A stretch of DNA of 64,000 nt from positions 1-64,000 of the forward strand of contig NW_027451934.1 in NCBI RefSeq assembly GCF_964194025.1. Direction: 5' to 3'. This DNA is from Convolutriloba macropyga. Its lineage: Eukaryota. Numbering within the stretch: position 1 is the stretch's first letter; each line of letters begins with the position of its first letter. A program made the position numbers and the translations under genes. Shown here one piece after another: positions 12,732 through 61,660 of this stretch. Under the pieces are notes generated by a model that worked only from the letters and a program-made list of their open reading frames with translations, ran no database searches and was not told the origin of the DNA.

Positions 12732-13268
12732 AAAACTTGACTTTGCTTTAGAGGCCGAGTGTGGTCTCAGAACCGAACTTTCTATTCTTTTATTTGTTTC
12801 GGCGGCTTGCTCAGTTTTGATATGTAAGTTTGAAAGCCAGTAAGTAAGCAGTGCTCTTATTTATAGCGTTGTATGTTAATTTTTGTTTACTTTGAAAGGA
12901 ATTTGTATCCTGTTTTCCATGATTCTGTATATTCAAGAAGTTAACAATCTAAAATTGAGCCCCTTTTTGATTAGCAAAGCGAAAATTCAACATCGGAGAC
13001 TCCTGTGCAATTATAAAAACTTGAATAGGGTTTTAGAAATTAGCGCTCTATCTTGAGAACTGTTGCTAGTGCAATGAAGCACCGACTGTGGTGCTCACTA
13101 GTTATCAAATTTGGTTTCTGAGAAATATTATTAGGGCAATGAAGCACCGGTTGTGGTGCTCACTAATTATCAATTTTGGTTCTTAGGGTCTTTTTATTAC
13201 GGTTTTTTAGATGGGTTTCAGCTGGGGATATTTTTAAAATGAGTTTTTACCGGTTTTAGATACACACC

Positions 13269-14950: not shown

Positions 14951-15796
14951 TTGGCACAATGTGACAACTTAATTCCGAACAATTTATTGAAAAAGAAGGG
15001 ACGTCAAATAATGTCAATGGTTGAAGATATTGACTATGATTACATTAGTAATTGGATTGTAACAGATAATCGCTATAAGAAGTGCGCCGAAACACTTAAA
15101 AAGTGCTATAATGAAGCTCTTGGTGCAGGTTATATTTTTGAGCATGATGCATTTGGTGGCTATGGTTTGTTCTACAATTGTGATGTGCCTATTGTGGTTT
15201 CTAAGAGACGTGATGTTTTGCTGCACAATCTCTGTGCTTTACTTCAACCAGTAAGCGACAGTGATATGCCACTCTTTAAGCCGATTTCGATTTTTTCTGG
15301 TACTGAAGCCTGCCGCCAAAACCGTATTATGGTTGGCCCGGTAAGATTTGCGAATCATTCTTGTTGTCCAAATGCGGAATATGTTGCTTCTTCGTTTGGA
15401 ACTTTAAAATGTGTAAAGCTCAAATTGTTGAAAACACTTAGCAAAGGAGAAGAAATAACTGTTTTCTATGGCAGCAGTTTTTTCGGCGAGGGAAACTGGG
15501 AATGTAAATGTCCTCATTCCTCCATGCATTCTGAGCGTCCAATGGTTTTCAGCGAGAAACAAAAATCGCTTATATCTGCAAATATTGAAAAACGTTTTAT
15601 TCGTCTAAGCAATCGAAAACGGCGCAAGCCCCTCCAGAAAAAAGTTCTCAATTACGAAATGCATTTTTTTTGTCGAGTGATTCGAGTGTTGAAGAAAGCC
15701 ATACCTCCATCCGTCAGAACTCAGTCGAAATGTCGTTGGATGGCGACATGGAGGAGTTTGACGGCAGAAATAATGATGAAGATACTGAGCAAATAG
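14951..15796 (+). CDS. SET-domain lysine methyltransferase, SUV4-20/KMT5B-like; probable N-terminal part of a SET-transposase fusion
   Basis: GGYGLF, MVGPVRFANHSCCPN and GEEITVFYGSSFFGEGNWECKC match the SET NHxCxPN/GEE motifs and the SUV4-20-type YG..FFG....CxC post-SET. Confidence 0.85.
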   Translation: MAQCDNLIPNNLLKKKGRQIMSMVEDIDYDYISNWIVTDNRYKKCAETLKKCYNEALGAGYIFEHDAFGGYGLFYNCDVPIVVSKRRDVLLHNLCALLQPVSDSDMPLFKPISIFSGTEACRQNRIMVGPVRFANHSCCPNAEYVASSFGTLKCVKLKLLKTLSKGEEITVFYGSSFFGEGNWECKCPHSSMHSERPMVFSEKQKSLISANIEKRFIRLSNRKRRKPLQKKVLNYEMHFFCRVIRVLKKAIPPSVRTQSKCRWMATWRSLTAEIMMKILSK

Positions 15797-17568
15797 AAAC
15801 GACGGAGGCAGTTGTCTTTGATGTGGAACAGGATGGAATAAATGACGATACTACGTTACATAGTGATTTGTCGTCAGTTGCTGAGAGCAATGATAACGAA
15901 GATTCAAACACAAACAGAAACTTTGAGATTGCGTTGACCTCAATCGTTGCCAGGCACGGCACCTCAGACAAAGAACTTAAAGATTGGATGGGATTGATGA
16001 AGGCCTCTTTCCCTAATGCTGACATTCCAAGCTATTCGCAGATGAAAAACCGTCATCATGTCCCCCAAACTCAACACAACTCCTTTATAAAAAGTTGTGG
16101 TACCGGTGAGTACTGGATGCTAGATTTCATGAACGAAATCCTTCAAATTTTGAAAGCTAACCTCGATGTTATAAGTGATTATTCGCTAACGCGTGACTCA
16201 AGTTATGACTTGAATTTGCAGCCCTGTCTCAACTTTGAGAAGAAAGAACTCACGATCTCATTAATTATGAACTCAGATGGTGTACGCATAATAAAGTCTA
16301 GTCCTAAGCATCTGTGGCCTGTGTGGCTAGCGCTGGCTGATCTGCCTCCAAAATTGCGCTGTTCATATAACAATATTTTTCTTGCAACTCTTTGGTGTGG
16401 TGTCGGCAAACCGAATTGGGATGAACTCTTCACGGATTTTGAGCAAAAACCTAAACAGCAGTTTACTGTAGAGTACAAAAATGTTAATTTCAAAATCATT
16501 GCCCAAGTAGTGTTACTGGTTGCCGATATTCCCGCCACTGCTTCGATGCTTAATATGCATCACCATCTCGCCAAGTTCGGTTGTACAATGTGCTTAATTG
16601 AAACAGAAACTGAAGAACGTGTTCGGTACTTCCCCTTGAAAAAATTCCCTCTCCGAACATCTGAAATTCATTCAAGTCACCTCCAGCGTCTTAGGGAGGA
16701 AAATTTAAGTTCGTTCATGGGTGTTAAAGGACCTAGTTTTCTATTCAAAATTATCCGGAATTTACCGCTCAGTGCGCCGCCTGACTGCATGCATCAGGTC
16801 TACATTGGGGTAACTAAAGTTCTATTGCAGGTAATTCTTAAGAAAACCTCTCGCATTGATCTGGAATGCTTAAAGTTAACTGTGTCGAAAATCAATCTTC
16901 TGTCTGACTTCAAGCGGTCAGTACGTCCGCTAAATGAGTTGGAATTCTTTAAAGCTAACGAGCTGAAAACTTGGCTACTGTACATTGGTCCAGCATTATT
17001 TAATGAGACAATAAATGAGCGATTAGCCTCAAGATTTTGCTTGCTTAGCTTTGCTGTGCGCCTTTTAATGACGTCATCGAAACATTGCTGTTACGCAGAG
17101 AAAGTTATCGAAAAGTTTCTTCAAGATACGAAAGAGGATTATTCGGAAGTTGCCTTCTCTGCTAATGTGCACTCGCTCACACACTTGACGTGGCAAGTTC
17201 GAAATACTGGTCCTCTGTGGACAAGTTCGGGAATGATGTTCGAATCAGCAAATTATTTGCTAAACTCGAAGTTTACTGGTACGGTCAACCATTTACCACT
17301 ATTAGTTGAAAGATATCACCGTAACAAGGAGGCCTGGAGGGCTTCTATTAAAGAGAATGAGCCCTTAGCAGCGTTTTGCCTAAAACTGCGAGGTAAAAAA
17401 CCGTTCAAAAAAACCGTTCAAAGAACTTTTCTTTGGAGGGTCCACCAAACGAGAAAGACTGTTTTTTTTCAGCTGAACACAATGGAGCACTTATATGCGG
17501 AAAAGTTTGCGCTTTCTTCACAGAGGAAGACAATCATTATGTATCAGCACAAATGTTCAAAATATTGA
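15670..17568 (+). CDS. CMC-superfamily (EnSpm/CACTA-like) DDE transposase, 3' end decayed
   Basis: NSDG..LWPV..LPP, VADIPA..GCTMC, GVKGPS, DCMH..G, KANEL, NVHSLTHL and GPLW...FESAN. Confidence 0.88.
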   Translation: MSSDSSVEESHTSIRQNSVEMSLDGDMEEFDGRNNDEDTEQIETTEAVVFDVEQDGINDDTTLHSDLSSVAESNDNEDSNTNRNFEIALTSIVARHGTSDKELKDWMGLMKASFPNADIPSYSQMKNRHHVPQTQHNSFIKSCGTGEYWMLDFMNEILQILKANLDVISDYSLTRDSSYDLNLQPCLNFEKKELTISLIMNSDGVRIIKSSPKHLWPVWLALADLPPKLRCSYNNIFLATLWCGVGKPNWDELFTDFEQKPKQQFTVEYKNVNFKIIAQVVLLVADIPATASMLNMHHHLAKFGCTMCLIETETEERVRYFPLKKFPLRTSEIHSSHLQRLREENLSSFMGVKGPSFLFKIIRNLPLSAPPDCMHQVYIGVTKVLLQVILKKTSRIDLECLKLTVSKINLLSDFKRSVRPLNELEFFKANELKTWLLYIGPALFNETINERLASRFCLLSFAVRLLMTSSKHCCYAEKVIEKFLQDTKEDYSEVAFSANVHSLTHLTWQVRNTGPLWTSSGMMFESANYLLNSKFTGTVNHLPLLVERYHRNKEAWRASIKENEPLAAFCLKLRGKKPFKKTVQRTFLWRVHQTRKTVFFQLNTMEHLYAEKFALSSQRKTIIMYQHKCSKY

Positions 17569-18453: not shown

Positions 18454-19404
18454 TTAATCTATATTTGAGGACACAACTTTGCACATACCTTGAAGGTGTG
18501 AGCTCTCTTCGGCAATTTCCTTTGAAAAAATTCTTTGAAGTGTTGATGCTACTTTCTCGTTGAGTGGATCATCAAATCGTGCTAGCAATTGAAGGAAAAT
18601 GAAAGTTTCAAACACAAAAGTGATGCAATCGGCGTGCGAAGCCTTTTTTCCCATTAAAAGTATTTCCCAGTCTTTCAAATTTTCATTCTTTAACAGAGAC
18701 ATAACCAGAAGACGTGTCTTCATTCTGTCGGCAAATTCACCATCGCTTCGTATGAACACTTGTGATAAAAAGTCAACGAGGAATGAAAGAACTGGTATTC
18801 TGATTTCATGAAATGATGGTCTAAAATTGTCCATCTTTTTGGGGAATCGGTGCGCCATTATAATTGTGCTACATATGTCAAAAAAAGCTATCCGATTCTT
18901 TTCAGCCATTGGTTGGATTGTTTTGAAAAGTTCAGATACATTTTTTCTTGTTTGGGTGCTGGGTTGCAATGAGTGATCGAGATTGTAGCAGCACATAACC
19001 TCGGAATATTCTAGGGTAATAATTTTTACATTCTGACGAGAATTGGAGCCCACTTTTTTGAACTTTTCTACAAACTGCTCAAATAAATCTTTATTGGGAT
19101 CAGATTTGTGTGAAAATATCTTATCTGTTTCATCAGTTGTAGCTGGCTTTTTGCATAGCAGAAGATAGACTCGAGTACGCGCATTGAATGCTGTGATAAC
19201 AGCCTTATCGAAACTCCGTTTATACGTCCTCTCAAGTGAAGAGGCGATATGTGCCACGAGGAAGTATTTGAAAGCAGGGAGCAACTTTGTAAAAATGAAA
19301 ATGATGGCGTGATTTTTACTTTCCCAATCTGCAACAAGAAGAAACGTCATCTGTTCGTCTTGAACAATAAGATTAACCTCAAAGGGTTCGTCGAATACTT
19401 TCAA
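18454..19404 (-). pseudogene. C-terminal half of an unknown intronless ~616-aa gene split by the Polinton
   Basis: The ORF begins within the left TSD and joins in frame to 41391-42293 (...QFLHNCS-LKVFDEPF...). Confidence 0.85.
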
Positions 19405-19409
19405 ACAAC

Positions 19410-19481
19410 AGAAGAAATATGAGCGCCGATAGGCACTGACTCGTCATCCAATCAGAGTCAAGCACGAATCGGCGCCCATAT
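19410..19481 (+). repeat. Left TIR of Polinton 1
   Basis: 69/72 identical to the reverse complement of 41321-41392. Confidence 0.95.
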
Positions 19482-20134
19482 CCCCTTATTTAGAGATTCA
19501 TCTAATTAAATCGTACCCCCCCCAAAGACATCAACTACATTTTATTCATATCCAGGTGAAAACCGCAATTCCCCTCATCCAGTAAATCCATCATACAAGC
19601 AGGTGATTTGTGCCCTTTTAATAAATAACAACCGTACTGCTAAAAATGAGTTGCGGTTTCTTTTGTCTAATAAAACAAAACTTGAAGTAGGAGCAGGTGG
19701 GATTAATATTTAACGATAGTAACGGTTGTTTTGCGGCGGGGCTCATTTGAGTTCTAACAAATCATTTCTGCGGTTATCTAAATTTTATCCATCTCTTTTG
19801 TTTCCCTCCAAAATTTATTTTACATCCTAAAGACAATTTTTTTATAATAATGCGAGTCGCTGCTGCGGTTTTAAAATTAAAGGAGAAAAGAATAATAAAA
19901 ACATGCGCTACAGCGCAGAACTCTGCGCGGTGCGCAGATTTCTGCGTTTTACAAAATTTCAAAAAAATGGGTTTTAAAAATGTTTCTTTTCATGCGGATA
20001 TCACTATATTCAGGATTTCTGTACATCGCGCAGAAATCTGCGCGGCATTAAAAATTCATCTCATATTTGAGTCATATGAATCTTGCGTGGATTTTTTTTA
20101 CGTATCTGTACGTTAGGTGCAGACATCCAATGTA

Positions 20135-22183: not shown

Positions 22184-22445
22184 AATTAAAATTTTGGAGA
22201 CAGTTGTTTTAAAATATTTCTGTGATTTTTCGTAGATGCGATTTTGAGTTTTCTGCAAGATGTTTTTCCTATTTCAGATTTTGCTGGTTCTATTCCTGGA
22301 AGGATCCTCGTTTACATTACTTCTGTTGAATTCACATATCTAGAACTTGGTAAGTGTCATTTTGCCAATTACTGCTCTTTTTGTCTAGTCGCTTTTTAAA
22401 AGAAAATTTTTCGGTTTTCATTTTTACTACTTATTGCAAAAATCA

Positions 22446-23258
22446 ATGGCATTTACACTTGAACTGGCGTCAAACTCTTCGCTCAATATTTATCCCGAGA
22501 ACACTCTCGCTTCTTTTCGTACTGTTTTGCTTGAGTGCATAGAATTGTTTGGTCATTGGGAGGTGTCCCTTCTTGAAATTTCGTATCCTAGAAATATTTT
22601 TAATATAGTTGAGGGGACTTTTGATCTTCGCTGGTCAAATAGCACTAGACTCTACAAAGGCTGTAAAATGCGCAAAGGCATGTATCATACAATTGAGGAA
22701 ATACGTATTGAAATGAACAATGCTATCGATCGAAAAAGAGAGCGATCCGATAAATTGAATCAATATCTCGATTTCCAATACGATTCTAGTCATGTACTCA
22801 AAATTTTTTCCTCGACAAAAGCGTCAGAGGTTCATTTTATTAGCGTTTCTAAGGACCTTCAATATATACTTGGGTTAGAGCGAAAAAAACTTATAGGTCC
22901 AATTTTAACCTATGTGCCAACGTACGCAGCCGATATTAATCGGTTTCATCACTTGTTTATATACTGTGACTTTATAGATCCTCAGTTTGTTGGCGAAAAC
23001 AAAGCCCCTTTGCTACGATCCTGTCCGGTATTTGATGTTTCCAAAAAAATACCCGGGGAAGCTGTAAAACCGGGAGGGTTTTTTGGTTACGGTTCTTCAA
23101 TTATTCGAAGCTTTCACCAGGCTCAATTCAAGAAAGTAGCAAAACAGTCTATTGGCGATGTGCTAATAGAAATAAGATCAGAATCGGGAGAACTGCTACC
23201 CTTTGTTGGGGATGGCAGAACTCAGCTTACTCTACAATTTCGACAAAAAACTATCTAA
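22446..23258 (+). CDS. Minor capsid (penton-like, single jelly-roll) protein
   Basis: FTLELASNSS..YPENTLASFR, WEVSLLEISYP, LFIYCDFIDPQFVG..KAPLLR and IEIRSESGELLPF..GRTQLTLQFR are typical of Maverick minor capsid proteins. Confidence 0.88.
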   Translation: MAFTLELASNSSLNIYPENTLASFRTVLLECIELFGHWEVSLLEISYPRNIFNIVEGTFDLRWSNSTRLYKGCKMRKGMYHTIEEIRIEMNNAIDRKRERSDKLNQYLDFQYDSSHVLKIFSSTKASEVHFISVSKDLQYILGLERKKLIGPILTYVPTYAADINRFHHLFIYCDFIDPQFVGENKAPLLRSCPVFDVSKKIPGEAVKPGGFFGYGSSIIRSFHQAQFKKVAKQSIGDVLIEIRSESGELLPFVGDGRTQLTLQFRQKTI

Positions 23259-23274
23259 TACGTTTAGGAAAACA

Positions 23275-23892
23275 ATGGCTTCTCAATGGATGAAAAAGAG
23301 AAAACTGATAACTGGAGTTACCGGCAAAGACCTGTCACTGAAGATTACAGCGGAGGAAGATACTCGAATGAATCCTACGGCAAAGCATTTTGACTTGAGA
23401 GCTCAAAATGGAAGATTTATTCGTTTATCAGTGAAAAAATATGAGTCTGGAGTTTACGCCCACATCAAGTTATTCAAAATTGAGGGCTGTACGAGCGCGA
23501 AGTCAGCAACAGATTGTCTCAACTGGGTCCGGGTAAATCAACTGGGATTAACGATGGATGAATTGATTGCTATAACAGGAATCACAGGCAGTGTACCGTC
23601 TGAATCCTTATCAAGTGAAGATCTTGAGAAAAGGGAAGAGTTTGAGGAGGTCATATCAGATATGCTAGAGCCTAATCAAAAATGTGAGGAAGTGCGAGCA
23701 GATCTGAAACAAATCACCTCGACAGTTGAACTTGGAGATTCGGAGGAAGAAGCTGATGCTGAGCGATCGGAAGTTGTGGCAAAGCAATTTATTGATCTGC
23801 CCCAATCTCAGCCAAATGCTGATGAGATGTGGCAATCAAAAATTTGTATCACAAATAAAAATGGGAAGAAAAAGATTCCAAAGAAGTTTTGA
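23275..23892 (+). CDS. Possible PC4/Sub1-like ssDNA-binding protein with acidic tail
   Basis: FDLRAQNGRFIRLSVKKYESGVYAHIKLFK...QLGLTMDELIAI follows the PC4 beta-beta-beta...GxxLT-helix pattern. Confidence 0.45.
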   Translation: MASQWMKKRKLITGVTGKDLSLKITAEEDTRMNPTAKHFDLRAQNGRFIRLSVKKYESGVYAHIKLFKIEGCTSAKSATDCLNWVRVNQLGLTMDELIAITGITGSVPSESLSSEDLEKREEFEEVISDMLEPNQKCEEVRADLKQITSTVELGDSEEEADAERSEVVAKQFIDLPQSQPNADEMWQSKICITNKNGKKKIPKKF

Positions 23893-24898: not shown

Positions 24899-25315
24899 AT
24901 GACAGAAAATCAGGATATAGCAGCCAGACTTTCTGTTTTGAGCAATGAATTACTGGAGGCCGGTACTTTATTGTTTGGTTCAGTTCAAAAACAACCTGAT
25001 TTTCCGCTTGCTCTGCAGAGGTTGTTGCATATTAGAAATTGTTTCCAAGATGTAATCTGCAGTGGTCAACTAACGAATAATATATCCCGTTTCCAGTATT
25101 TCAACTTGATGTTTCGTTTGGAAGCAGTGTACAGATCACTTAGCTATTGCTACAACATGCTTGGAATGCCCAAAGATGCGAATGCGTGTCGAGCTTCAGC
25201 CATCTTCTTCAAAGGAAAATTTGCAAGCTATGTTGCTCCAGGTACTGTTTTTGGCAACCTCCAGGACAAAGATGAGCAACCCAAGTTTCTCAAGCCCTCA
25301 ACAAAACAGAACTGA
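24899..25315 (+). CDS. Hypothetical helical Polinton protein (138 aa)
   Basis: Intact ORF; ttttcag acceptor 9 nt before the ATG. Confidence 0.6.
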   Translation: MTENQDIAARLSVLSNELLEAGTLLFGSVQKQPDFPLALQRLLHIRNCFQDVICSGQLTNNISRFQYFNLMFRLEAVYRSLSYCYNMLGMPKDANACRASAIFFKGKFASYVAPGTVFGNLQDKDEQPKFLKPSTKQN

Positions 25316-25587: not shown

Positions 25588-28500
25588 ATGTCGAATAAAG
25601 CTGGTGTCGATGCAACTCAGGATGAAGCTGAGAGCATTTCTCAAGAGAGTGAACCGCGAGACCATGTATCTTCACAGAACGTACAAACAACTGATGAACG
25701 CAACCAGAGACCGTCTGGGTTCGATCCGAGCCAACATTACACTATCATTAGACGGCCTCAGAGAAGAAGCAGCCTTCAAGCCGTTAGCAGGGATTTCGAA
25801 GTACTATTTGTTGATATTGAGCGTAACATCCCCCATCTGAGAGAAATTTTTGAAAGCCTAATCAGTACACTCGTGGCCGATGTGCTGAGCGAAATGAATG
25901 GAGTCTCCCATCGTGTTAGAATTGTTTTGAATGCACCCAGCTTGAACTACCCCATTCATATACCCTTTCAAGATGCGAGTACTATTAATGTTGATCTTAT
26001 TTTAAATGAACTTGATAGAGTTCTCAATTCGCATGAAAGTTTTGATATAAGCAGTGATATCAAATTAAACTTGCTTTGTATATCCCTCCCGTCGATGGGT
26101 GGCAAAAAAATCGGTGGAATTGAAAACAGGTCTGTGCCCGATTTGTACACATTCTTGTCAGCAAAAAGATCTGTCATTACAATCAAATCGCAAAATAATG
26201 ATTGTCTGATAAGAGCTCTTGCCGTGGGTCTAGCTATCAGCAACGCATCAGCAGAAGATAAAAAGCAAAAACGTTGGACCGAGTCTATTCAGACAGCGGA
26301 AGTTAAGCAGCTTCTATTTCGATTGAAACAATTCAAAGAGCTCAAGATATTTCAAAACACTGGAGACAAACTCACTCTCGAGGATCTCAGCAGCATTGCG
26401 GCCACGCCGGTTTTTAATAATGTCAACATTACGATCTACGACAGAAATTTTATGGGTGTCTATTTGAAGAGCTTCAATGACCATAAGGAGCTCCATGTTG
26501 ATCTGCTTTACGACAAGGAGTCCGGTCACGTTGACGTAATTAAGTCAATGAAGGGCTTATTTAGCTGTCGTTTTTACTGCTATGCGTGCCACAAAGGTTA
26601 CTCTTGCGTAAAGCATCAATGTCCAGCGATTGGTTGTGGCTTATGCCGACAGATGGGTTGCTTAAATCGCACTGGATATATCACTACTGCACCCGAGTTT
26701 GGCAAACGTCAAGAGTTCAAGTGTGCTGTCTGTGGTCTATCATTAAGGAGTCAGTTTTGTCTAGACAGCCGCATCGAGAAGCAGATATGCCTGTATTACT
26801 TTAAATGCCCGTTGTGCAACTCAACGATACCCAAACATTCGTCGACTAACCATGTTTGTTCTCAGAAGTTCTGTCTTGTTTGTTATCAACAGTATCCAAA
26901 GATTGGGTCAAAAGAGCACGAGTGTTATGTGCAAAAACCCAGAAAGCGCAAATCTACATTTTTTACAAAAGAAGTCGAAGACAATGAGCCACAAAGAAAG
27001 TTGGAGAGATTTCAGGAAATTGAGTTTGGTGAAGAAGATGGCTTCCACGAGGTTGATGTTGAACAAAGGGATTCACCGGCCGTTGATAATGAAAATATTT
27101 GGGCATTTGATATTGAAACAGATCAGAGCTGCTTGAATGATAACGAGCACAAACCTGTTCTCCTGGTTGCGAGAAATCTTAGTGGCTCGCTGGAGGAAAT
27201 CTACGACGGGTACGATTGTATTGACCGTTTCTGCTCAGAAGTCTTTCTGAAGAACAGTCAACGGGTGAGAAAATATGAATGGTTTATTGCTCATTTCGGA
27301 AGTGGCTTTGATTTCCTTCCAGTCTTGCAATGGCTTTATACTAAACAAAAGTACGTGCCCAAAATTGTTCTGAGAGGAAACAAAATAATTTCGCTCAAAG
27401 TGGGCAACAAACGGTTTATTGACTCATATCTCTTTATTCCTGTTCCCTTACGGAAGTTTCCGGAGACATTTGGAATAGCAGAACTCAGAAAAGGATATTT
27501 TCCTCACTATTTGACATCATCACAATCTTTGAACAACGACATGACGCTGCACGATCGGAAGAAGTGTGAAAGGGGATATCTATGTTTGTGGACATTTATT
27601 AGGACTGATGACTGTAGCCATTGTGTGGGAGATGAATCAAGAACCCTAGAGGCAGGCAATTTTCCTCCTATTTGTGTGTTTGGTGCCAAAATGTTCTCTA
27701 ACAAAAAAGAGTACGAAAAGTTCAAACTGTGGCATGACGGTCAAAAGGAGAAGTACCGAGAAGAAGATCTTCGATACAATTTTAGAGAGGAGTTGTTACA
27801 GTATTGTCGCTCTGATGTTGAACTCCTCAGGATGGGTGTATGCAAGTTTCGTCAATTGATAGCAGAGTCATGTTTTGGTGTTGATGTCTTCAAAACCGCA
27901 TGTACTGCTGCTTCCGCTTGCAATTACATTTATCGACGTTTTTTTATGCCTTCCAACTCGATTGCAATTTTGACTACGAACGGCTATAGAGCTTTGGATA
28001 GAACATCTTTTTCAGCTAACCAGTGGCTCGAATGGAAAGAAGTTTTCTCTCTGACACGCCTAATTCATCCCTCAGGATGTACCGCTCAAATGTATTTTCA
28101 CAGTCGCCGTCAAATATCAGTACCTGTAAACAATCAGGTGAACAAAGAGTTGGGCAGTTCAAAGTTGACGGAATTCTTTTAAAAAACATCTCAAATATTT
28201 GGGATTGCAAAGAAACCTACGAGGCAACAGTTTTTGAGTTTTTCGGTTGCTATTACCACGGCTGTCCAAAATGCTTTAAAAATCGCAAAGAACTTAATAA
28301 AAAGGCCGGAGTTAGTATGGAGACTCTTTATCAAGACAGTTTTGTGAACCGTTTAGCTTGGTTCTCAACACAGAAGGAGTTAGGAACACAATTTCTTACT
28401 AAAGATGGAATTCACTTTTCAATTGTCGACGTTCAGCATATTTGGGGTTGCGATTTTGATAAATTAATACAACGAGAGAATGTAACAACTTGCAGCTTTG

Positions 28501-30104
28501 ACCGCCCTATACTTCCAGCAGAAGAGAAATTATCAACAGTTTTGAAGAAGAGCAACATCTTTGCACCCCTTAAGGCAAGAGATGCTTTTGTTGGAGGACG
28601 AACTGAAAATTTTTACTCTTACTGGTACAAAGGTGAGAGTAAATTCAATTTGAAATATGTTGATGTTTGCTCTTTGTACCCATATGTTAACGCTCATTCT
28701 TTCTATCCTGTTGGTCATCCTGATCAGGTTTTGGTCGCACCCATCTTCAACGATGATCCAGAGCATTATCTGTGCTCCAAAAATAGAAAATTAAAAGCGC
28801 TAGACAATTCTGTTTACAGTGAAAGTTTTACTTATGTTGAAAACTGTGTTTTGACAGAAACGTTCTTTGGCCTAATAAAGTGTGTGGTTCTTGCTCCTCG
28901 TGATCTGCTGATTCCCGTTCTGCCTTTCAAACATAACAAAAAATTGTTCTTCCCTCTCTGTAAGGAGTGCGTGGTAACTAAAAACATGGCACAACAACCT
29001 ATTGAAGAGAGCAATTTCCAATTTTGTTCACATACAGCACCTTCGGAAAGATCATTTTTTGGGACATTTGTTTCGACGGAATTGAAGCTTGCTGTAGAGA
29101 AAGGATATCGGATACTTGATGTTGCTGAAGTTTGGAATTGGGAATACTCAAAGAGATCACAGAACTTGTTCAGAGATTATATAAAGACCTTTTTGAAACT
29201 AAAAACCGCAGCTAGTGGTTGGGGAAATATTTGTGACTGTGTACATAGCAACACAGACGAGCCATGTCAACACAGAGAAAAATTCTTGAGAGACTTTGAG
29301 CAAAAAGAAGGAATTGCTCTGAACGCTTCGAACATGTCTTACAATGAAGGAATTCGTTTCAAATCCAAAATCCTATTGAATTCGTTCTGGGGTTACCTGG
29401 GGATGAGGGAAAATCTCCCCAAAACAAGGTATATCAACAGTTACGCAGATGTTGTGAAAATGTTCACTTCAGATACGAATCGTGTTGTTGACGCATCTTT
29501 GGTTGGCGATGATCTGATGTTCATACAATATCAATTAATCGACGAAGAGGTAGAATCTAACAGAAAATCGAATGTGGTTCTAGCTGCTTTCACAACGGCG
29601 CATGCAAGATGTTTTCTATATAAAAACATGGTGAAGGTGAAAGATCCTAGAAATATTCTATATTGTGATACCGACAGCATTATGTATTTACAAGATGGGT
29701 GCTCGAATACTGAACCTGATATTGAATTGGGGAGTTTCATGGGCGATATGACCGATGAAATTCCCTCTAACGTTGTTATTACTGACTTCTTCAGCGGTGG
29801 GCCAAAATTCTATTGTTTGAGTGGATTCTATTCAGACACATCTAATGATTACAATGTTTTCAAAATGAAAGGCATCACAATGAACAGAGCGTGTGAAAAA
29901 ATATTTGATAAAGATGGATTCAAGAAATTGGTACTCCAAGAAGTTCATGAATTGAGGTCTCCCTTCAGCTCGATGAAAAGATGTGTTCGCAGTGGAAGAA
30001 TTCACAACAGTTTTTGTCAAAAAGTAACAAAAACAACTAGCAATAAACGCGTTTTTTCCTCTGAAACTGGTAGTTCTGTTCCTTATGGATATTGTTGTTC
30101 TTAA
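25588..30104 (+). CDS. Protein-primed family B DNA polymerase (pPolB) with one -1 frameshift near 28040
   Basis: vOTU-like DCLIRA...HVDVI, CxxC clusters, exonuclease FDIET / HFGSGFDF / FIDSY / YCRSDV, Vsr-like VDG...FEFFGCYYHGC, and polymerase YVDVCSLYP, KILLNSFWG and YCDTDS. Confidence 0.95.
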
Positions 30105-30208: not shown

Positions 30209-30811
30209 ATGGAATTTCGAAACAGTTGTTCTAGATCCTTTGCTCACTTTGTTTTCTACCCATCTCAAAAAAGCGCAAAGGATGCTTTAGAACAAACCAA
30301 GTGCCTGAAGATAGACCTGGTTAAATTGTTGTCAGACGCAGGCGTCTCATTCGTTCTGGGAGCGCATTATCATCAATGTTTACGACAGTGCGGATTCATT
30401 GATGATGCAAGCGAGTGTGTTGCTGCTGAATGTGACGAGCAGAAAAACAAACGCGGCTACGGCAAGTGCATACTAAGCAGCAATCCAGTCGCTGATTCAC
30501 AAAATTTGTGCAACCATGTGCATTTGCTGCTTCATATCTCTAACAAAGTGAAAAACACCAACGAGAAGGATGATTTTCCCTTTTCGCACATGCCAAGTAC
30601 AAATTGGGGGTTGGAGACTGTGATCGATATCGTACGCAACTACTTTAATGCGCATCAACCTGGACCCGGATTAGCATTTCCAAAGGGGTTTCGTGTTGAG
30701 CAGAGAAATGTGTGGTGTCCGTTCTCAATATTTGCAGCTTTTGTTCACCTGCAAAAGTCGCATGTTGTTATTCAGGGTTCAGTTTTTCAGAAAACTTTTA
30801 AAAAAGCGTGA
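30209..30811 (+). CDS. Hypothetical Cys/His-rich protein with an HUH-like HVHLLL motif
   Basis: Intact ORF with an acceptor 8 nt upstream; contains FVLGAH and NHVHLLLH. Confidence 0.55.
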   Translation: MEFRNSCSRSFAHFVFYPSQKSAKDALEQTKCLKIDLVKLLSDAGVSFVLGAHYHQCLRQCGFIDDASECVAAECDEQKNKRGYGKCILSSNPVADSQNLCNHVHLLLHISNKVKNTNEKDDFPFSHMPSTNWGLETVIDIVRNYFNAHQPGPGLAFPKGFRVEQRNVWCPFSIFAAFVHLQKSHVVIQGSVFQKTFKKA

Positions 30812-31075: not shown

Positions 31076-31600
31076 ATGGCGTTTATGCCTATAACAAAGA
31101 ATTTGTTTGTCAGGGTCTGGTCCTATGACGCAATTTTGTCAGCTTGCGGTGAATCTGTAGATGAGTCTAACGGATTTCAAACACGTGTGGAATTTTTCTG
31201 GCGAAAACAACTACTTGAAAATTCAGAAAGTTTTATCGCTGCGCAGTCTGACGAAGAAGATGGAGCCGAGAACTGCGATGAAGACTGTGTGCCGAATGAA
31301 GCAATCAGTATTATGATTGGAAAAAAGACTTACTTGTTGAAGCCGTTCTTCACACTATCGGGAAAGGAGTTTAGCAGATTAGCTGCGTTTGAGCCAATAC
31401 TAAACCACGTAGATGTCTGGACCAAACGATTTGGCCGACGGCTTGGAGGAGATGGTTTAATTGATCAGGAAGGACGAACTGCATTTTCCGACGGGAGACC
31501 CGGCGAACTATCTTGTAGCTGCTCTCTGCCTGTTAAGCAAGCCCGAAAGTTGTATTCAGGGTATGGCAAGCTCTGCGGAACAAATGAAAGTCACCTTTGA
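31076..31600 (+). CDS. Hypothetical protein, weakly PC4-like
   Basis: FMPITKNLFVRVWSY...RVEFF...FTLSGKEFSRL; acceptor 10 nt upstream. Confidence 0.55.
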   Translation: MAFMPITKNLFVRVWSYDAILSACGESVDESNGFQTRVEFFWRKQLLENSESFIAAQSDEEDGAENCDEDCVPNEAISIMIGKKTYLLKPFFTLSGKEFSRLAAFEPILNHVDVWTKRFGRRLGGDGLIDQEGRTAFSDGRPGELSCSCSLPVKQARKLYSGYGKLCGTNESHL

Positions 31601-31781
31601 ATTTGGAAGTGACGCAGCAGTTACTGGGGATCAATCCAGTTTGGCTTTTTTAACCTTGTTAGTTGGAAGTAAAACTGAAAATATAGTTTCCCCGGGGTAA
31701 ATTTTTTCTAGCAAAAATAGAATTGTTTCTTTTTTTTAGAATTCGTCCGAACGTTTTTCAGTTGCTGTTTTTCAGTTTGTA

Positions 31782-32411
31782 ATGAGTGCTGCCGATTTCT
31801 TCTCATTCCCAAATCAGGAGACAATTGCCAATTCAATCAAAGTGATTGATGTTACAGCCTGTGTGCAATTTCTGACGAAGATAAACGTTCCAGTTGCTGC
31901 TCGATTTTTTCCTGATTTTATTGAAAAATGGAAAAAACGTAAACCGCTATATCTGACTTTATCAAATCCCGCAGCATTTGGATGCCTGTACCCCACGGGA
32001 AAAATGTTAATAAGCGGCTGCAAGACTGTATTCGAGACTTGGGTTCAAGTTGATTGCTTCACCAACAAGTTACGATCGATGGGACTTGCTGCCACCTCAA
32101 TCAGTTTTGAAATCAAGTGGATCAGTGCAGAAATTGATCTGAAGCAGCTTTTATCTCTTGCAGAAATGCCGTCTATAGCTCATATGGCTCATTACGTAAA
32201 ATACAAACTGCGATCAGCACGTGTTCATGTTGTTGCAAATCTAGCTATGTCAGTGAAACTAGAGACAAAATCGGCGGAATTTTTGTTTTTCAAGTCTGGA
32301 AGAATGAAAATCAAAAGCGACTCTTGGACTGATATTGTTGAAGAATCTTCTAAGATCTTGCAACTTTTAAGGCATACATTTTGGTTTGAAAGAGTAACTT
32401 CAGTTTTGTAA
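31782..32411 (+). CDS. Divergent TATA-box-binding protein (TBP)-like protein
   Basis: Two TBP-like repeats. [27 protein letters not shown] aligns with [52 protein letters not shown] with [25 protein letters not shown]; and [11 protein letters not shown] with LLIFVSGKVVL. Confidence 0.8.
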   Translation: [209 protein letters not shown]

Positions 32412-32519: not shown

Positions 32520-33188
32520 ATGATTTGCTCGAAAAGAACTGAGAACAAGGAAAATGTTCGTCCACCCAACACACCCGACAGAGCAGTATTAACGGACCAA
32601 GAAGTCAGCAGCCCTCATCAAAACTTTACTGATGCAGTGGAAGCCGGCGACCGACCGCGGTTTTTGTCGCGACCGCACGCGAGCGGGTCTGGCAGCGACG
32701 GGCGGGGCGCGAGCGGATCCGGCGGCGACGGGCGGGCATCTGCACAAGCATCAGCATTTAGTCCTCAGGAATCCATATCAGAAGGTTACAGCTTTTCTAG
32801 ATTCAGACAACCGTTACAAAATATTAGTAATATGGAAAACCATGAAATCGGAGGATCCCAGAATCCTGATCGTGTGGGGCCGCAGAGGCAACTGACAACA
32901 GCTCCAACATATCAACGGAGTTTTGGATTTGATCCAAGCTACTCCCGAGCTAGATTGTTATTGGATGAAAACTTTTGGAGTCCTCTGTCAGAGGCTATGT
33001 CGGACAGTTTACATGGCAGCGATAACGAGGATGAGCATGAGACCGACGCGCATGATGGTGAAGCTGATTCGAGCGGCGAGGCTGGTGATGAGGAAATTAA
33101 TGATTCAGTTTTTGAAGACGGCATTAGGCACTATCCATTTAATGCTGGAACTAGTGCTAGACGCGAAAGACTCAACGCTGAGAGTTGA
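32520..33188 (+). CDS. Disordered acidic protein with KEN-box and D-box-like motifs
   Basis: ATG 32520 follows tttttcag. Contains NKENV, RQPLQNISN, several S/TP sites and a duplicated GC-rich ASGSG.DGR. Confidence 0.65.
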   Translation: MICSKRTENKENVRPPNTPDRAVLTDQEVSSPHQNFTDAVEAGDRPRFLSRPHASGSGSDGRGASGSGGDGRASAQASAFSPQESISEGYSFSRFRQPLQNISNMENHEIGGSQNPDRVGPQRQLTTAPTYQRSFGFDPSYSRARLLLDENFWSPLSEAMSDSLHGSDNEDEHETDAHDGEADSSGEAGDEEINDSVFEDGIRHYPFNAGTSARRERLNAES

Positions 33189-33943: not shown

Positions 33944-34838
33944 ATGAACAAAATTATTCCAACATCAGAGCGAATATTTATGTGTGTATGTGGATCATCT
34001 GAGTCGGGTAAAAGTTTTTTTAATATACAAGATGTTCCGCGAACCGGTCGCAACAAGTGGTATTTTCCAGCCTCCTTTCTATCAAGTTTTTGTTTTTTAC
34101 CGGTTTTGGCAGTCAGTTTATGATCAGATGGCTGCTGAGTGCTCCCCACACTTCATTTTTCACTGCATTTCATCACTGATTACAGAGGGTGTCGAACGTT
34201 CATCCAATGGTATTGACGATTGGTTGAACAAGTTTGTGGAAAACTTTGAACCAGTTACCGGTCAGAGCACACTACTACTATTTGATGATTCATGTGAAGA
34301 AGTTTTAGAGAGCAAGGCGTTTGAGAACCTTGCGACAGCCGGTCGTCACAAAAAACTCCATGTGATTTTCATTAAACACAATCTCTATCAAAAAGGAAAA
34401 TATTCAGTGACTATTGACAAGAATACCACGCATATCATACTTACGCAGTCTCCCAGAATTGGCAGGCAACTGAAAATTTTGGGAACTGAAATTGAATGTG
34501 CCCCTTCTAATTTCATCCACTGTTGCTACCAGTTATCGATGTCAAAACAACAATATGGTCATTTTCTGGTAGATTTAACAACGCAGTGTCCTGACGAACT
34601 TCGTTTTTGCACCAACATAACAAGTCAGTGTATTGGCAGTCTCTCTACTGGGCAGTTGAATATCTCGATCAAAAACAACAAAGTGGTAAACGGAAGCCAA
34701 CTGTCCTGTACAACGTTTTTTAGACCTGCAGTGAAGAGTGGGAGATTGTCAGTTGATTGCATCGATTCACCAGAACTAAGTGAAAAGCATTCAATTCTTT
34801 TTTCTGATTTTTTGAAACGCTTGCAGAACGGCTATTGA
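33944..34838 (+). CDS. A32/FtsK-like packaging ATPase with a +1 frameshift in the T7 run at 34015-34021
   Basis: Walker A GSSESGKS lies in ORF 33920; Walker B LLLFDD, AGRH and FIKHNLY lie in ORF 33984. Confidence 0.9.
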
Positions 34839-34862: not shown

Positions 34863-35495
34863 ATGTTTCCTGCTCAATCGCGAAGAACAACCGGCAAACC
34901 AACACAATTTATCCTGCTGCCCATATCTTCAATTGAATCCGAAGATAAAAATGTTGGTAATTTTTCAGCAAAAATACAAAAAATCGGAGCTCTGGGCCGT
35001 GAAGTGGTAGAATCAAGTAACTTAAAAAACACAATATCCTCGCAAAAAGAAATTAACAATGATGAGAATTCTTGTTCTAGTATTCCCGGCCCATCGGATA
35101 AAAGACCTCAGGGTGAAGAGCCAAAAAAAACATTGATTCAAGCTACAAACCCAGCTCCATATTCAAACACTAAAAGCAAGAAAAAGTCAACGGTAAACCT
35201 CCCACGGGAAAAAAACCGTCGAAGAAAAATTCAAGTTCTGCTTTCCCTGCTGCAAGATTGCAGGAACTTGCGTATAAACTTGGCAAAAAAGTCTATTAGG
35301 CTTTCTTCTGGTCGTGCTGAAGTCTCCCTGGTAATTTTGTTAAAAAAACTATCCAGTCCCAAGTCGGACTTTGACAAAAGTTTGAAGCCATTTATCGAAG
35401 CTCTGCTACAAGACTACTCGAAAGAACGACTTTCAAATCTTTTTCTAAACCCATCTGCGATAACATTTTTGAACACTAAAGACAGTTCGCTATAA
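34863..35495 (+). CDS. Hypothetical basic Polinton protein between ATPase and integrase
   Basis: Intact 210-aa ORF whose stop overlaps the integrase start (TAATG). Confidence 0.65.
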   Translation: MFPAQSRRTTGKPTQFILLPISSIESEDKNVGNFSAKIQKIGALGREVVESSNLKNTISSQKEINNDENSCSSIPGPSDKRPQGEEPKKTLIQATNPAPYSNTKSKKKSTVNLPREKNRRRKIQVLLSLLQDCRNLRINLAKKSIRLSSGRAEVSLVILLKKLSSPKSDFDKSLKPFIEALLQDYSKERLSNLFLNPSAITFLNTKDSSL

Positions 35496-36546
35496 TGAGT
35501 TCCCTGCTGACTGAAAACGAATATCGAAGGCTCAAAGGCATTTACACCTCGCTTGATTCAGTTGCCGCTTTTGGCGGGGTGAATGACTTAGTTAGAGAAA
35601 GCGGTTTATCAGTGAAACAAGTCAAAGAATTTCTTCAGTCATCGAAAACTTACACAAAGTTCCGTCCCAATCGAAAACGTTTCAAAAGATTGCGTGTTCA
35701 CAGTTTGGGGATGAATCATGTCTGGTCGGTCGATTTGGCTCATATGGATAAACTTGCCGCCGAGAATGATGGTTACCAGTACCTGTTAGTTTGTGTAGAC
35801 ACTTTTTCTCGGTTTTTGCGGGTTCAGCCCATGAAGGACAAGCAATCTGAAACTGCTTTGGTAGCACTCAAAAAAATGCTTCCGAAAGCACGTGCTGATT
35901 ACCCCTTAAAAATTTGGGTTGATCAGGGCAAAGAGTTTTGCGGTGCTTTTAAAAATTTTTGTCTGCAGAATGATATTGTTTTGTATAACACTTTCAATGA
36001 TTCAAAAAGTGCCATTGCCGAACGATACATAAGAACAATAAAGTCAAAGCTTTATAAATATTTCAATGAACGTCAGACAACCAGATATATTGGTCAGCTA
36101 CAGAAACTCGTCAAAATGTTAAACTCCAGAAGCCACCCAATTTTAGGCATGGCTCCAAAGAACGTGCGGCCGGAGCACACAGTTGATTTGTTGAAGAAGA
36201 ATGTCCCAGACATGCTAAGAAAATGGAGGCCAAAAAAAACATCTAGAAAATTTAGCAAAAAAAGCCAAAGTTCAAAAAAGGTCAAACTGTTCGAATATCG
36301 CGCATCAGCAAATCAGCTTTTGACAAAGGTTATACTCAAAATTTCACCGATGAAATCTTCAAAGTTGCTTCTGTTTCTAGACCCCTTCGCAACGACAACA
36401 AAAAAGACACCCGCCCCATCACCTACAGCTTAGTGGATGGAGCGGGTGAAAAAATTATTGGCAGGTTTTATGAACCGGAACTGGTTGCCTACAGATATGA
36501 AGAAGATCGGCATAGAGCCAGGCATCAAACAACATCCGTTTTCTGA
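35495..36546 (+). CDS. Retroviral-like (rve) DDE integrase with a -1 frameshift in the A runs at 36232-36263
   Basis: WSVDL, VDTFSR, WVDQGKEF and AIAERYIRT. The shifted frame continues KFKKGQTVRI..FDKGYTQNFTDEIF..GRFYEPEL to TGA at 36546. Confidence 0.93.
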
Positions 36547-37178: not shown

Positions 37179-38522
37179 ATGTCCAATTTGTTCACCGATC
37201 CCCCAATATCATCAACTCATTCAGATTTGGATGTTTTTTCAACCAGTCATGTATTAGTAGATTTTCAACGCTCCTTTGATGAACAGATCTTTCCACCGAT
37301 AGATAGCAATGCTCCAGTCCTCGAGTTTGAGTTCCAGGGTGCGCGTACTGAACTGGGAGGCACAGTCATTGACACTAGGAACATTTATATGAGCTTAGAG
37401 TTGTCGCTGGAGAAAATAACTTCCGGTAAAGATACAGCTGCAACTATAAGGCCCTATTTTATAAACAACATCGCTCACAGTCTCTGGCAGAACGTCGAAG
37501 TATTTGTTGCTGGCACCCAAGTTACCAATGCTAACAACTTGTATCCTTTCAAAAGTATTGTTGAAGCTGATTTGTCTTTCGAACCTTCCGCAAAAACAGG
37601 AATTCTGGCTTGTCAGGGTTACTCTTACGAACCCGACCCCACAGTTTTCAACAAAAAAGAAGAAGACCTACCCATAAAAAGTGGTTTCAATAATCGGCGG
37701 GATATTGTCGATGCAAGACGGCCCTGGAAACATTGGTTCACTCTCAATGACAGTTTTTTGGCTGGAATTGACAAATACATCCTTCCAGGTTTCCCATTAC
37801 GAATACGACTGACACGCTCAACAGATCCATTCCTTCTTCTGCAGCCAGAAGGAGCAGTTGACGCAAAGAACTATACAATTAAGGTTCTTTCTGCCTCGCT
37901 TTTTGTTCACATGCTCGAGTTACGAACTGAAACCTTTTTATCAATTGAACGAGCCCTGAGCAAGAAAGCAGCGCAATACATTTGGCGAGAGGATGTTATG
38001 GTTTCATTTGTGATTACTTCTGGAACAAGCATTTATTTCCGGGACGACATTTTCAATCGAGCTCCTGTAAGTCATTTTATAATGCTGATGGTTCCAGAGA
38101 AAAGTTTTACCGGCAGCTACCATACAAACCCTTTTCATTTCTCTGATTTTGCTTTGGACACCATTTCAGTTACTCGTGAAGGTCAAACGGTTGGCAACAC
38201 CCCTATAGAAGTGAGAACAAGTAATGCAAGGGTTTATTCGAACACTCTCCGGTCATTAAACATGACTCATTCAGGCAATGGTATAACTTTGGACGAGTTT
38301 GATGATCATTTCACCCCTGTTTTCCGACTGACAGCAGACCTTAGTATTGATGATAACACAATCAGACCAGAGCTGACCGGTGCCAGACTGGCCATTGAAT
38401 TAAAATTTCAAAAAGCAGTACCTAACCCAATTCGTCTGATCCTGTTTGGAGTGCGTCGCTCTGTTGCATTTGCTGATTGCAATAGAGAGGTAGTGAAGAA
38501 CTCTTCTATATACAATGGTTGA
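37179..38522 (+). CDS. Major capsid protein (double jelly-roll, hexon-like)
   Basis: SDLDVF, LEFEF, NNIAHSLW..VEV....Q....NLYPFK, GSYHTNPFHF and FRLTAD; 447 aa, intact. Confidence 0.92.
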   Translation: MSNLFTDPPISSTHSDLDVFSTSHVLVDFQRSFDEQIFPPIDSNAPVLEFEFQGARTELGGTVIDTRNIYMSLELSLEKITSGKDTAATIRPYFINNIAHSLWQNVEVFVAGTQVTNANNLYPFKSIVEADLSFEPSAKTGILACQGYSYEPDPTVFNKKEEDLPIKSGFNNRRDIVDARRPWKHWFTLNDSFLAGIDKYILPGFPLRIRLTRSTDPFLLLQPEGAVDAKNYTIKVLSASLFVHMLELRTETFLSIERALSKKAAQYIWREDVMVSFVITSGTSIYFRDDIFNRAPVSHFIMLMVPEKSFTGSYHTNPFHFSDFALDTISVTREGQTVGNTPIEVRTSNARVYSNTLRSLNMTHSGNGITLDEFDDHFTPVFRLTADLSIDDNTIRPELTGARLAIELKFQKAVPNPIRLILFGVRRSVAFADCNREVVKNSSIYNG

Positions 38523-38991
38523 CAACTTCACTCTGGGTCGTCTCATTTCAAAGGATCCCGAACTGTCCTATCGATTTCTGGGCTGTTTCGCTGCCGACAG
38601 TTTTCCCTATGATTTGTCCGACGAGACTTTTTTCATTCTGAACACAGCTCCAAGAAACTCACCTGGTGAACATTGGTTGATGGTCGCCAAGAAACAACAA
38701 ACTATATATTTTTATGATAGTTTTGGAAGAAAAGCTGAACTTGAATTCGCTGATATCATAAACAAAATCCGAAAGTCGAAATGCCGTGTATTTTTGCAAA
38801 TCTATCCATCTCGGGGCTTTGAACAACCGCTAACGAGTTCAGCATGTTCGCTCTACTGTCTATTTGTTGCTCATTTTTTATTCAAAAATAATCATAATTT
38901 CCCTCGTTGGGCTACAGAGGAAGACATATTACAGTTTGCTGCATCTAATTTTAATATCAAACATCGGTTATTAAAATTAATACATTCATAA
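38515..38991 (+). CDS. Adenain-like cysteine maturation protease
   Basis: FLGCFAAD, ILNT....GEHW, FYDSFG and Q..TSSACSLYC supply the catalytic H, D, Q and C. Confidence 0.92.
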   Translation: MVDNFTLGRLISKDPELSYRFLGCFAADSFPYDLSDETFFILNTAPRNSPGEHWLMVAKKQQTIYFYDSFGRKAELEFADIINKIRKSKCRVFLQIYPSRGFEQPLTSSACSLYCLFVAHFLFKNNHNFPRWATEEDILQFAASNFNIKHRLLKLIHS

Positions 38992-41219: not shown

Positions 41220-41320
41220 TTGGTAAGTTGCATTCATTAATAGAGCACAGTCATCTAGTTGTTTATTCAGTCATTTCCATATAAGGATTGGAATATGTAC
41301 TCTGATTCTTATTCGTGGGA

Positions 41321-41392
41321 ATATGGGCGCCGATTCGCGCTTGACTCTGATTGGCTGACGAGTCAGTGCCTATCGGCGCCCATATTTCTTCT
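41321..41392 (-). repeat. Right TIR of Polinton 1
   Basis: Reverse complement of 19410-19481 with three mismatches. Confidence 0.95.
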
Positions 41393-42293
41393 AAGAACAA
41401 TTGTGTAGAAACTGTTTCCAGTCGGCAATTAAAACGCCGTCCGCAACACCAGCTTTATTGAGGAAACTTTGAACAATCCGTGTTTCGTCATTCTGGTTGT
41501 CTTTGAACTCGGAAGGTAATAGAGTGAGTGAGTCGTGGAAATTGGGAAAATGAGTTTTGAAAACTTCTCTGTTGCGTATATAGCGACTTGTCATAGTAGT
41601 TATTGCTACATCCCCAATATCTCTCCATATATGTATCAATTTCAATGTCTCCATAAAAAGATCTTGCCCAGATTCATTTCCCAAAACATCTTCCGATTGT
41701 TTATCCACATGATCAAAAAACGTTTCCAACAGTTTGGTCGTCATGGCACTGGAACGCTGAAGTTGTTGCGCTATGTGCTTTTGCTTTGAGCCAGGGCTGC
41801 GAGCGATGATCATCTTTTCGTTTTTTGGATCAAATTTTAGTTGACGTTGCGACTCCTCATTTATGCTAAAAAATATTGCCGATTGTTCCTGTTGTCCATT
41901 GTTTTTGGCCACCATCATGGCAAAACTAATAACGTGTTTTTCTTTTGCCCGTTTTAAAATTGGGTCCACCATTAATAGATCGAGTAAAACTTGCTCCATT
42001 TCAATTTGGGTTCGATTATCGCCCGAATCCAAAATCAGAACAGCAACAGCTGTCTCGAGTCCGGGTGCTGGAAAAAACAAGTATCCGTTACAGCTCAATA
42101 ACTTTACCAGGAAACCTTTCAAACCCGCGTCTCTGAGGCGTCTCTCGATGGAATTTGTCAAAAGATCCGTCACAAAGATATCGTGGCTAAGTATCTTTGG
42201 ACCCCCCGGAATCATCAAAAGCTTTGTGGAGTAGTCCGGATCTAGTCCACATAACTGGGCTCTGAAGTCAGAGAACTGTTTTCCAGAATCCAT
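41391..42293 (-). pseudogene. N-terminal half of the gene split by the Polinton
   Basis: ATG-initiated 300-aa ORF whose stop codon is created at the TSD/TIR junction. Confidence 0.85.

Positions 42294-61629: not shown

Positions 61630-61660
<31 letters not shown>

Follow-up and report, generated by a model that had tools for sequence, protein, structure and literature searches.

A divergent TATA-binding protein gene in a Maverick/Polinton element of Convolutriloba macropyga

A Maverick/Polinton element in the genome of Convolutriloba macropyga carries a gene whose product is a divergent, two-lobed member of the TATA-binding protein (TBP) family with the saddle fold. The gene is present in every copy of the element family that was found and is absent from a closely related sister family; it is thus a family-specific accessory gene. 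The residues of its product that correspond to the DNA-binding face and to the surfaces for host partners are extensively changed, and the protein may be a viral promoter factor that acts apart from host TFIIB. The window analyzed here is the whole stretch of 64,000 nucleotides (positions 1 to 64,000, forward strand) of contig NW_027451934.1, and open reading frames are named by their start positions.

The element and its gene map

The element is 22 kb long in a host genome of 1.18 Gb, and all of its genes are on the + strand. Its main features are as follows.

19410..19485, + strand: left TIR; starts with AGAAGA and contains CCAATCAG, which is also in the TIR of the sister family
22278..22349, + strand: candidate ATG-less leader exon with a TTTCAG acceptor and a GTAAGT donor, immediately upstream of the minor capsid gene
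22446..23258, + strand: putative minor capsid protein; homologs in sister families, no informative Pfam match
23275..23892, + strand: conserved protein, 35% identical to the sister family; one of two PC4 candidates (unsupported)
25588..30104, + strand: protein-primed B-family DNA polymerase, in two frames with a break near 28.0 kb; PF03175 in both open reading frames
30209..30811, + strand: conserved Cys-rich protein with motifs AHFVFYP and NHxHLL, directly after the polymerase; 34% identical to the sister family (L036:5263-5949)
31076..31600, + strand: upstream neighbor of the TBP-like gene, conserved toward its N terminus; the other PC4 candidate (unsupported)
31769..31775, + strand: TTTTCAG resembling a 3′ splice acceptor, its end 6 nt ahead of the start codon of the TBP-like gene; another at 31756-31761
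31782..32411, + strand: TBP-like gene, 209 aa, two lobes (lobe 1 at about aa 19-99, lobe 2 at about aa 109-198)
32520..33188, + strand: downstream neighbor, acidic and of low complexity, with a KEN box and a D-box; no match in the sister family
33945..34838, + strand: A32-like packaging ATPase, with a break close to the 5′ end of the gene; PF04665 weak, E 0.033
35495..36433, + strand: rve integrase, PF00665 E 8.7e-12; the C-terminal part changes frame
37179..38522, + strand: putative major capsid protein; many genomic homologs, no Pfam match
38515..38991, + strand: adenain-like cysteine protease, PF00770 over cut-off
41317..41392, − strand: right TIR; its 6-bp flank is one base off the left flank

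The TIRs are 76 nt long and 95% complementary, in agreement with the first-pass annotation, which had placed the gene in a TIR-bounded Polinton. Identical 6-bp flanks are present in seven of nine other copies with both ends read (13 further copy sets were fetched). The element thus displays the Maverick/Polinton hallmarks of TIRs with a 6-bp target duplication, a protein-primed B-family polymerase, an rve integrase and an adenain protease; the ATPase match is weak. The minor capsid label is presumed from Maverick gene content, 37179..38522 is taken to be the Maverick major capsid by position and size, and the motifs of the 30209 product, which has no PDB match and no informative Pfam match, are taken to be HUH-like.

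The element is inserted in a single-copy intronless open reading frame of about 620 codons on the minus strand (41391-42293 and 18454-19409). The two parts share one reading frame, and this confirms the ends of the element. The motifs AGAAGAA, GCCGATAGG and CCAATCAG are common to the TIRs of both families (19410-19485; L044:8487-8598), and CCAATCAG is presumably a CCAAT box. The shared motifs are a possible host-factor site that would serve a promoter or an origin.

The TBP-like gene is found at 15 genomic places with 93%–100% identity, and its full frame is open in 11 of these. The element copies differ by 0.4%–1.9% in a star-like pattern, and therefore the family spread recently. In the copy within the window, the polymerase, ATPase and integrase genes show frame breaks. 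One further copy (L085, L080) is divided between two large contigs, with one part on G000:C5 (near 16.098 Mb) and the other on G000:C2 (near 11.123 Mb). The left and right halves join at 34190/34191 of the window, and the division represents either a rearrangement or an assembly break. In the contigs of four runs from one study there is a gap over the TBP-like gene in X3 and partly in X4, and no contig bridges it.

Other mobile sequences are also present in the window. A second Polinton of another kind, AT-rich and decayed, occupies about 50600–64000; it has endonuclease VII and a DJR-like capsid, and no TBP profile match was found in it. Positions 8901–17568 form a transposon-like block with SGNH-like, SET-domain and DUF1258/Transposase_21 open reading frames amid tandem repeats. 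The element itself has one small helical gene of TPR-like type (24899-25315), of which the sister family apparently has a duplicate pair (L044, minus strand, 129 and 121 aa).

Family assignment and fold of the TBP-like protein

The open reading frame at 31782..32411 (+) has no internal stop codon. Its translated product matches PF00352 (Pfam) with 32 bits against a curated cut-off of 22.9 (E-value = 1.1e-7), in two stretches. The best Pfam match of each lobe taken alone is also PF00352, with E-values of 2.8e-4 for lobe 1 (profile positions 2–84) and 0.019 for lobe 2 (profile positions 2–83). An intact 209-aa frame with both TBP repeats, as had been read from the sequence, is therefore present. 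A lobe HMM built without the TBP-like protein scored both halves above all 2000 of 2000 shuffles, although with a thin margin of about 1 bit (8.3 bits against a maximum of 7.1, and 8.8 against 7.6). In a PDB sequence search 26 of 27 matches were TBP chains or TBP fusions (best E-value = 0.0036). The four clusters listed by the ESM Atlas are all PF00352 at 0.95–0.96, and 29 of 30 matches have the same family set, with a recognition score under the tool's 2300 mark. BLASTP of lobe 1 against lobe 2 gave no alignment.

The single-sequence fold has a pLDDT of only 31. A model guided by an alignment of 37 TBPs reached a pLDDT of 76.8 and a pTM of 0.71, with low confidence at residues 138–152. It matches cellular TBPs with a Foldseek E-value of 4e-11, and yeast TBP with Z = 16.9 and an rmsd of 2.9 Å over 178 residues. 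This model is partly circular because a TBP alignment guided it, and the family assignment therefore rests on the profile results. The comparison with PF00352 by profile and by structure, proposed in the first-pass annotation, thus found both the TBP family and the saddle, the latter in an alignment-guided model. The amino acid identity to the TBPs compared is 14%–20%, and 16%–17% to host TBP.

Residues of the DNA face and partner surfaces

The TBP-like protein was aligned with host TBP and two giant-virus TBPs (L058, L059). Y70 and F170, the G-K/R turns and the S/T preceding the turns are kept; LYPTGK and FFKSGR are present as had been noted. The aromatic position of Y70 and F170 is taken to be L5.1, by way of yeast numbering. 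The four intercalating Phe positions are R53, Y70, R144 and F170, so that two of the canonical four are Arg; the register of R144 (the F3 assignment) is unsure because it lies in the low-confidence residues of the model. The two Asn and two Thr that contact the TATA minor groove are D23, W113, S78 and K178, and the Asn of the NIV/NMV strands is thus replaced in both lobes, as the first reading had it. On lobe 2 the DNA face consists of W113, E166, K176 and K178, and from these residues this lobe may be incapable of DNA binding. Taken together, the alignment bears out the claim of a divergent TBP with an altered DNA-binding face in a Polinton.

The partner surfaces are also changed. The TFIIB-binding glutamates align to K140/K142, and the acidic C-lobe stirrup is absent; whatever the register, residues 129–160 have no D or E. 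In the helix-2 basic cluster (TFIIA, TAF1, Brf1, Mot1) the host residues R, K, R, K are replaced by D, C, N, S. The C position is Arg in a database protein (P0001), and three of the four basic positions are lost in all copies compared. Both lobes have basic stirrups, and the pI is 9.45 as against 10.0 for the host TBP core, i.e. a lower net charge.

According to PMC7221094, viral TBPs keep L5.1, the most conserved nucleic-acid signature, while their TFIIB glutamates and N-lobe basic cluster have diverged. The residue pattern of the TBP-like protein, as aligned, matches this published one. The same paper reports that most viral TBPs pair with a viral TFIIB, and that charge reversal at the TFIIB glutamates (E284R, E286R) cripples human TBP (PMC7221094). 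The loss of partner surfaces, as read from the alignment, speaks against a decoy role toward host partners, and also against recruitment of Pol II by the ordinary TFIIB route.

Distribution and origin

In the sister family the major capsid is 50%–58% identical and the gene order from polymerase to protease is the same. The slot between the homologs of 31076 and 33264 contains low-complexity open reading frames and a microsatellite, and no TBP-like gene, in four of four copies, one of which was covered from TIR to TIR. A TBP profile gave nothing under an E-value of 1 in a total of 20 stretches, taken from the sister family and from four copies of a more distant family. The family comparison scored 94 of 4638 capsid candidates, and further families may thus also have the gene. 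Absence from sister elements had been named as one half of a refuting observation, neutral evolution being the other; the absence is real and marks the gene as an accessory one, but it does not by itself show neutral evolution. The distribution reflects either a gain in the TBP-bearing family or a loss in the sister family.

Searches for homologs of the TBP-like protein found its own family only: there was one match among 188 candidates, and nothing beyond the family. Among 1.84 billion representatives there were three matches and no true homolog beyond its own cluster; two of the three are repeat-rich proteins unrelated to TBP. Sequence searches of IMG/VR and of phage records with the TBP-like protein gave none. 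Scans of IMG/VR with TBP alignments gave three distinct contigs, two of which (genes examined) are giant-virus-like, the third being L108. A scan of IMG/VR for the major capsid and of metagenomes for the 30209 family found nothing; capsid relatives at 34%–56% are present in public assemblies. A further TBP candidate, L032, was rejected as the reverse frame of an integrase-like open reading frame.

A phylogeny had been proposed as a check, and a tree was made from 17 of 38 rows. The TBP-like branch has a length at the limit of 10 and long branches meet; grouping with host TBP is not rejected (p-AU 0.386), and grouping with giant-virus TBPs has support values of 51/72. The tree is thus uninformative on the origin of the gene. 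The host has its own canonical TBP, which is closest to animal TBPs at 77%–85% apart from two near-identical entries. A TFIIB gene and TRF2-like exons are present in the host too, and the element's gene is thus not a substitute for a missing host gene. The host TBP core (L017) and TFIIB (L101-L102) are each encoded by one uninterrupted frame, and the pieces of the TRF2-like gene are spread across about 44 kb.

Selection

Singleton changes in the TBP-like gene among inserted copies are 9 synonymous, 32 non-synonymous and one stop, over 138 synonymous and 489 non-synonymous sites, which is a neutral ratio. The other 19 element genes show 202 synonymous and 597 non-synonymous singletons over 3247 and 11846 sites (a ratio of about 0.8). 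Indels are found in the TBP-like gene in 4 of 14 copies, and in 0–6 in other genes. These numbers measure decay after insertion rather than selection in the active lineage; they show that the TBP-like gene was not domesticated by the host.

When the host TBP core was drifted to 20% identity by neutral random substitution (substitutions only), none of 200 runs was free of stop codons, with a mean of 7.6 stops. The frame of the TBP-like gene is open and both lobes fit the family at 14%–20% identity, a state that neutral drift would not reach, and this points to protein-level constraint. The comparison implies that the gene was under protein-level selection in the past. Its GC (0.39) and GC3 (0.36) match those of other element genes.

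Expression signals and neighboring genes

The sequence T[TC][TC]CAG, ending 3–10 nt before the ATG, is found in 9 of 19 element genes as compared to 12 of 314 other ATGs within 25 nt (Fisher p = 1.5e-7). The nine genes are 24141, 24899, 25588, 30209, 31076, 31782, 32520, 36632 and 40638, and several sister-family homologs have the same signal. The capsid, ATPase, integrase and protease genes do not have it; the element thus appears to have two gene classes, with and without an acceptor. The ATG-less segment from acceptor to GTAAGT before the minor capsid gene is kept in the sister family (window 22272-22355). In adenovirus, the major late unit has a shared cis-spliced leader. The layout seen here would fit either such a leader or host spliced-leader trans-splicing. 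Among the 10 acceptor-less genes, no shared upstream motif was commoner than in random sets, of which 29, 54 and 73 out of 200 had counts at least as high. TATAAAC is present in none of 19 upstream regions of element genes, and TATTWAA in one.

The first-pass annotation had proposed a transcription-hijack module in which the TBP-like gene acts together with PC4-like and degron-bearing neighbors. The degron-bearing neighbor is real: the 32520 product has KEN at aa 10 and RQPLQNISN at aa 96, which we take to be a KEN box and a D-box by consensus, and both occur together in only 1 of 20000 shuffles. It is a candidate APC/C substrate or pseudosubstrate, and it may have arrived together with the TBP gene, since it too has no match in the sister family. 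The PC4-like neighbor was not found: the 23275 and 31076 products have no PC4 match in Pfam, PDB or the Atlas, and Pizza6 matches in this search were discarded as repeat-summed noise. A module that includes PC4 is thereby not upheld, since PC4 is undetected and both candidates are also present in the sister family, which has no TBP. No PF00382 match, as for a TFIIB-like gene, was found in the element by Pfam profile, the comparison for the helical open reading frames 24141, 24899 and 39871 being by profile as well.

Comparison with known TBP-like factors

Nucleocytoviricota TBPs (IMG/VR loci L058 and L059, and BFVD matches) share with the element's TBP diverged surfaces for TFIIB and N-lobe partners (PMC7221094). 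However, in L058 and L059 the YEPELFP stirrup, the Asn pair and the full set of four Phe are retained, features that the element's TBP has lost. It is 18%–20% identical to giant-virus TBPs, and the element has no TFIIB match, whereas most such viruses have a TFIIB.

The KSHV protein ORF24 redirects host Pol II in a virus that has no RNA polymerase of its own; it has a polar DNA face, and it drives late genes even though the acidic residues for TFIIB are missing. It reads TATTWAA, acts with five viral partners and needs a Pro and six Asn (10.1101/2025.08.25.672222). All four Phe are also needed, and extra domains are present (10.1101/2025.08.25.672222; PMC7498053). In contrast, the element's TBP keeps two of the aromatics, has other residues in place of the canonical Asn and, with its 209 aa, consists of the core without any extra domain. 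The combination of four Phe with Pol II- and DNA-binding domains that characterizes herpesvirus vTBPs (ORF24/UL87/BcRF1) is thus absent from it. The likeness to herpesvirus TBP mimics that had been suggested is a loose one: it extends to the missing TFIIB acidic residues, but not to the aromatics or the domain content.

The large subunit of vaccinia VITF-3 is also an atypical TBP: its inner surface carries positive charge, and its intercalating residues are non-canonical. It is reported to bind promoters through a basic surface and through Ile intercalators, in partnership with a TFIIB-like subunit, as part of an obligate TBP/TFIIB ring loaded by the viral RNA polymerase (PMC12917281). The VITF-3 complex chain 8p0j_H matches the TBP-like model with Z = 6.7; neither a TFIIB-like subunit nor an RNA polymerase was detected in the element.

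Host TBP and TRF2/TBPL1 (L017; L019-L021) have a compact two-lobe build and a length similar to that of the TBP-like protein, and TRF2 also departs at intercalating positions (PMC7221094). However, NVV, NNV and YEPELHP are kept in the TRF2-like exons of the host and missing from the element's TBP, and the combination of Asn pair, acidic stirrup and Trp at N.L5.1 that marks TRF2/TBPL1 is absent from the TBP-like protein.

A further comparison is with MELD viruses with an adintovirus-like PolB, among which there is a TBP-labeled gene in a mid-size linear dsDNA virus or Polinton relative (Starrett et al. 2021, PMC8502044). In the text compared, the TBP is a gene-map label, with no residue analysis or function, and the likeness to the element's TBP is by label alone (PMC8502044).

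Possible function of the TBP-like protein

The reading preferred here, with a probability of about 0.45, is that the TBP-like protein is a viral DNA-binding promoter factor which works apart from host TFIIB and the host TBP regulators, and which helps to express part of the element through a partner. On this reading a TBP gene would have entered the Maverick family and been retained, by selection on its protein, as an accessory DNA-binding factor. The protein is probably made from a spliced message, as the acceptor 6 nt before its ATG suggests, the same signal being found at the polymerase and regulatory genes. The saddle would bind AT-rich DNA, with less base reading and more backbone reading than cellular TBP, since Y70 and F170 are kept, the other two Phe positions are Arg and the stirrups are basic. 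Docking of host TFIIB in its usual mode would be prevented, and the protein would escape control by Mot1 and TAF1. Through a partner, it would assist host Pol II in reaching promoters of the element, and the block of capsid, ATPase, integrase and protease genes, which has no acceptors, is the most plausible target. The promoter-specificity factor of the first-pass annotation thus survives as the likeliest role, but with ordinary TFIIB-based recruitment argued against. Several observations weigh against the preferred reading. The sister family has the same gene order and no TBP, so that structural genes can be expressed without one; the element shows no shared upstream motif, no TATAAAC and no TFIIB-like gene; and unlike ORF24, the protein has no extra domain with which to reach Pol II. 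A more specific form of the preferred reading is speculative. It holds that this is a minimal TBP with no need of its own or host TFIIB, which reads a non-TATA signal by means of Arg in place of two Phe and switches host Pol II from the spliced early unit to the capsid block.

The missing promoter motif and TFIIB would also be accounted for if the protein had no role in transcription, and the basic saddle bent or coated element DNA at a TIR origin, in replication or packaging. The stirrups are basic on both lobes and the partner surfaces are gone, and the gene stands directly behind the polymerase, HUH-like and 31076 genes with the same acceptor class. However, the sister family replicated recently without the gene from similar TIRs, the net charge is below that of the host TBP core, and the viral TBP-fold proteins characterized in the literature compared are transcription factors; such a role is therefore considered unlikely. 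Slightly less probable is a dominant-negative repressor, which would sit on AT-rich promoters of the host or the element without TFIIB recruitment or eviction by Mot1, and so damp host transcription or early genes. It would explain Lys at the positions where E284R and E286R cripple human TBP (PMC7221094) and the loss of most of the Mot1-binding patch. Yet a protein that has lost both Asn and two Phe used in TATA recognition would compete poorly at host TATA boxes, and a broad repressor would hinder spread unless silenced, whereas the element has reached at least 15 germline places.

The first-pass annotation also offered a decoy that soaks up the host TBP partners TFIIB, TFIIA, TAF1, NC2 and Mot1. 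In its favor are the retained TBP fold, the fact that some partners recognize shape or contact the concave face, and the Arg at one helix-2 basic position in P0001. A decoy should however keep its partner surfaces and lose its DNA face, and the opposite is seen, i.e. the universal DNA aromatics stay, K140/K142 replace the glutamates with no acidic residue at 129–160, and three of four helix-2 basic residues are lost. This makes the decoy improbable. Least probable is that the gene has no function and is a TBP retrocopy which was captured by the element and drifts within it as a passenger. This would fit its absence from the sister family, the lack of a true homolog beyond its own cluster among the 1.84 billion representatives and the neutral ratio among inserted copies. 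But the other 19 element genes decay similarly after insertion (singleton ratio of about 0.8), an open 209-codon frame at 14%–20% identity was not reached neutrally in any of the 200 runs, and the gene has the GC and GC3 of element genes as well as the element's acceptor signal.

Significance

The novelty claimed for a TBP in a Polinton was overstated, as a TBP label is already present in the MELD-virus maps (PMC8502044); what stands is that this viral TBP-like factor is unusually rewired. Viral TBPs with lost host-partner surfaces are already known, and the element's TBP appears to be an unusually rewired variant among such factors, with a predicted function. In the literature on Polintons, Mavericks and adintoviruses, judged mostly by listing, no study of the function of a Polinton TBP was found.

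The element's TBP is an extreme test of what a TBP needs: its DNA face is more altered than that of the herpesvirus mimic, yet it was selected. If activation without TFIIB is true, this would be a new and very small route to Pol II recruitment. If the switch by a minimal TBP is true, a 22-kb element would have a herpesvirus-like early-to-late switch from one 209-aa protein. The timing of Maverick/Polinton genes, and whether these elements follow a viral early/late program, are largely unstudied in the literature searched, and a family-specific TBP, together with a close sister family that has none, provides a natural comparison for this question of gene timing.
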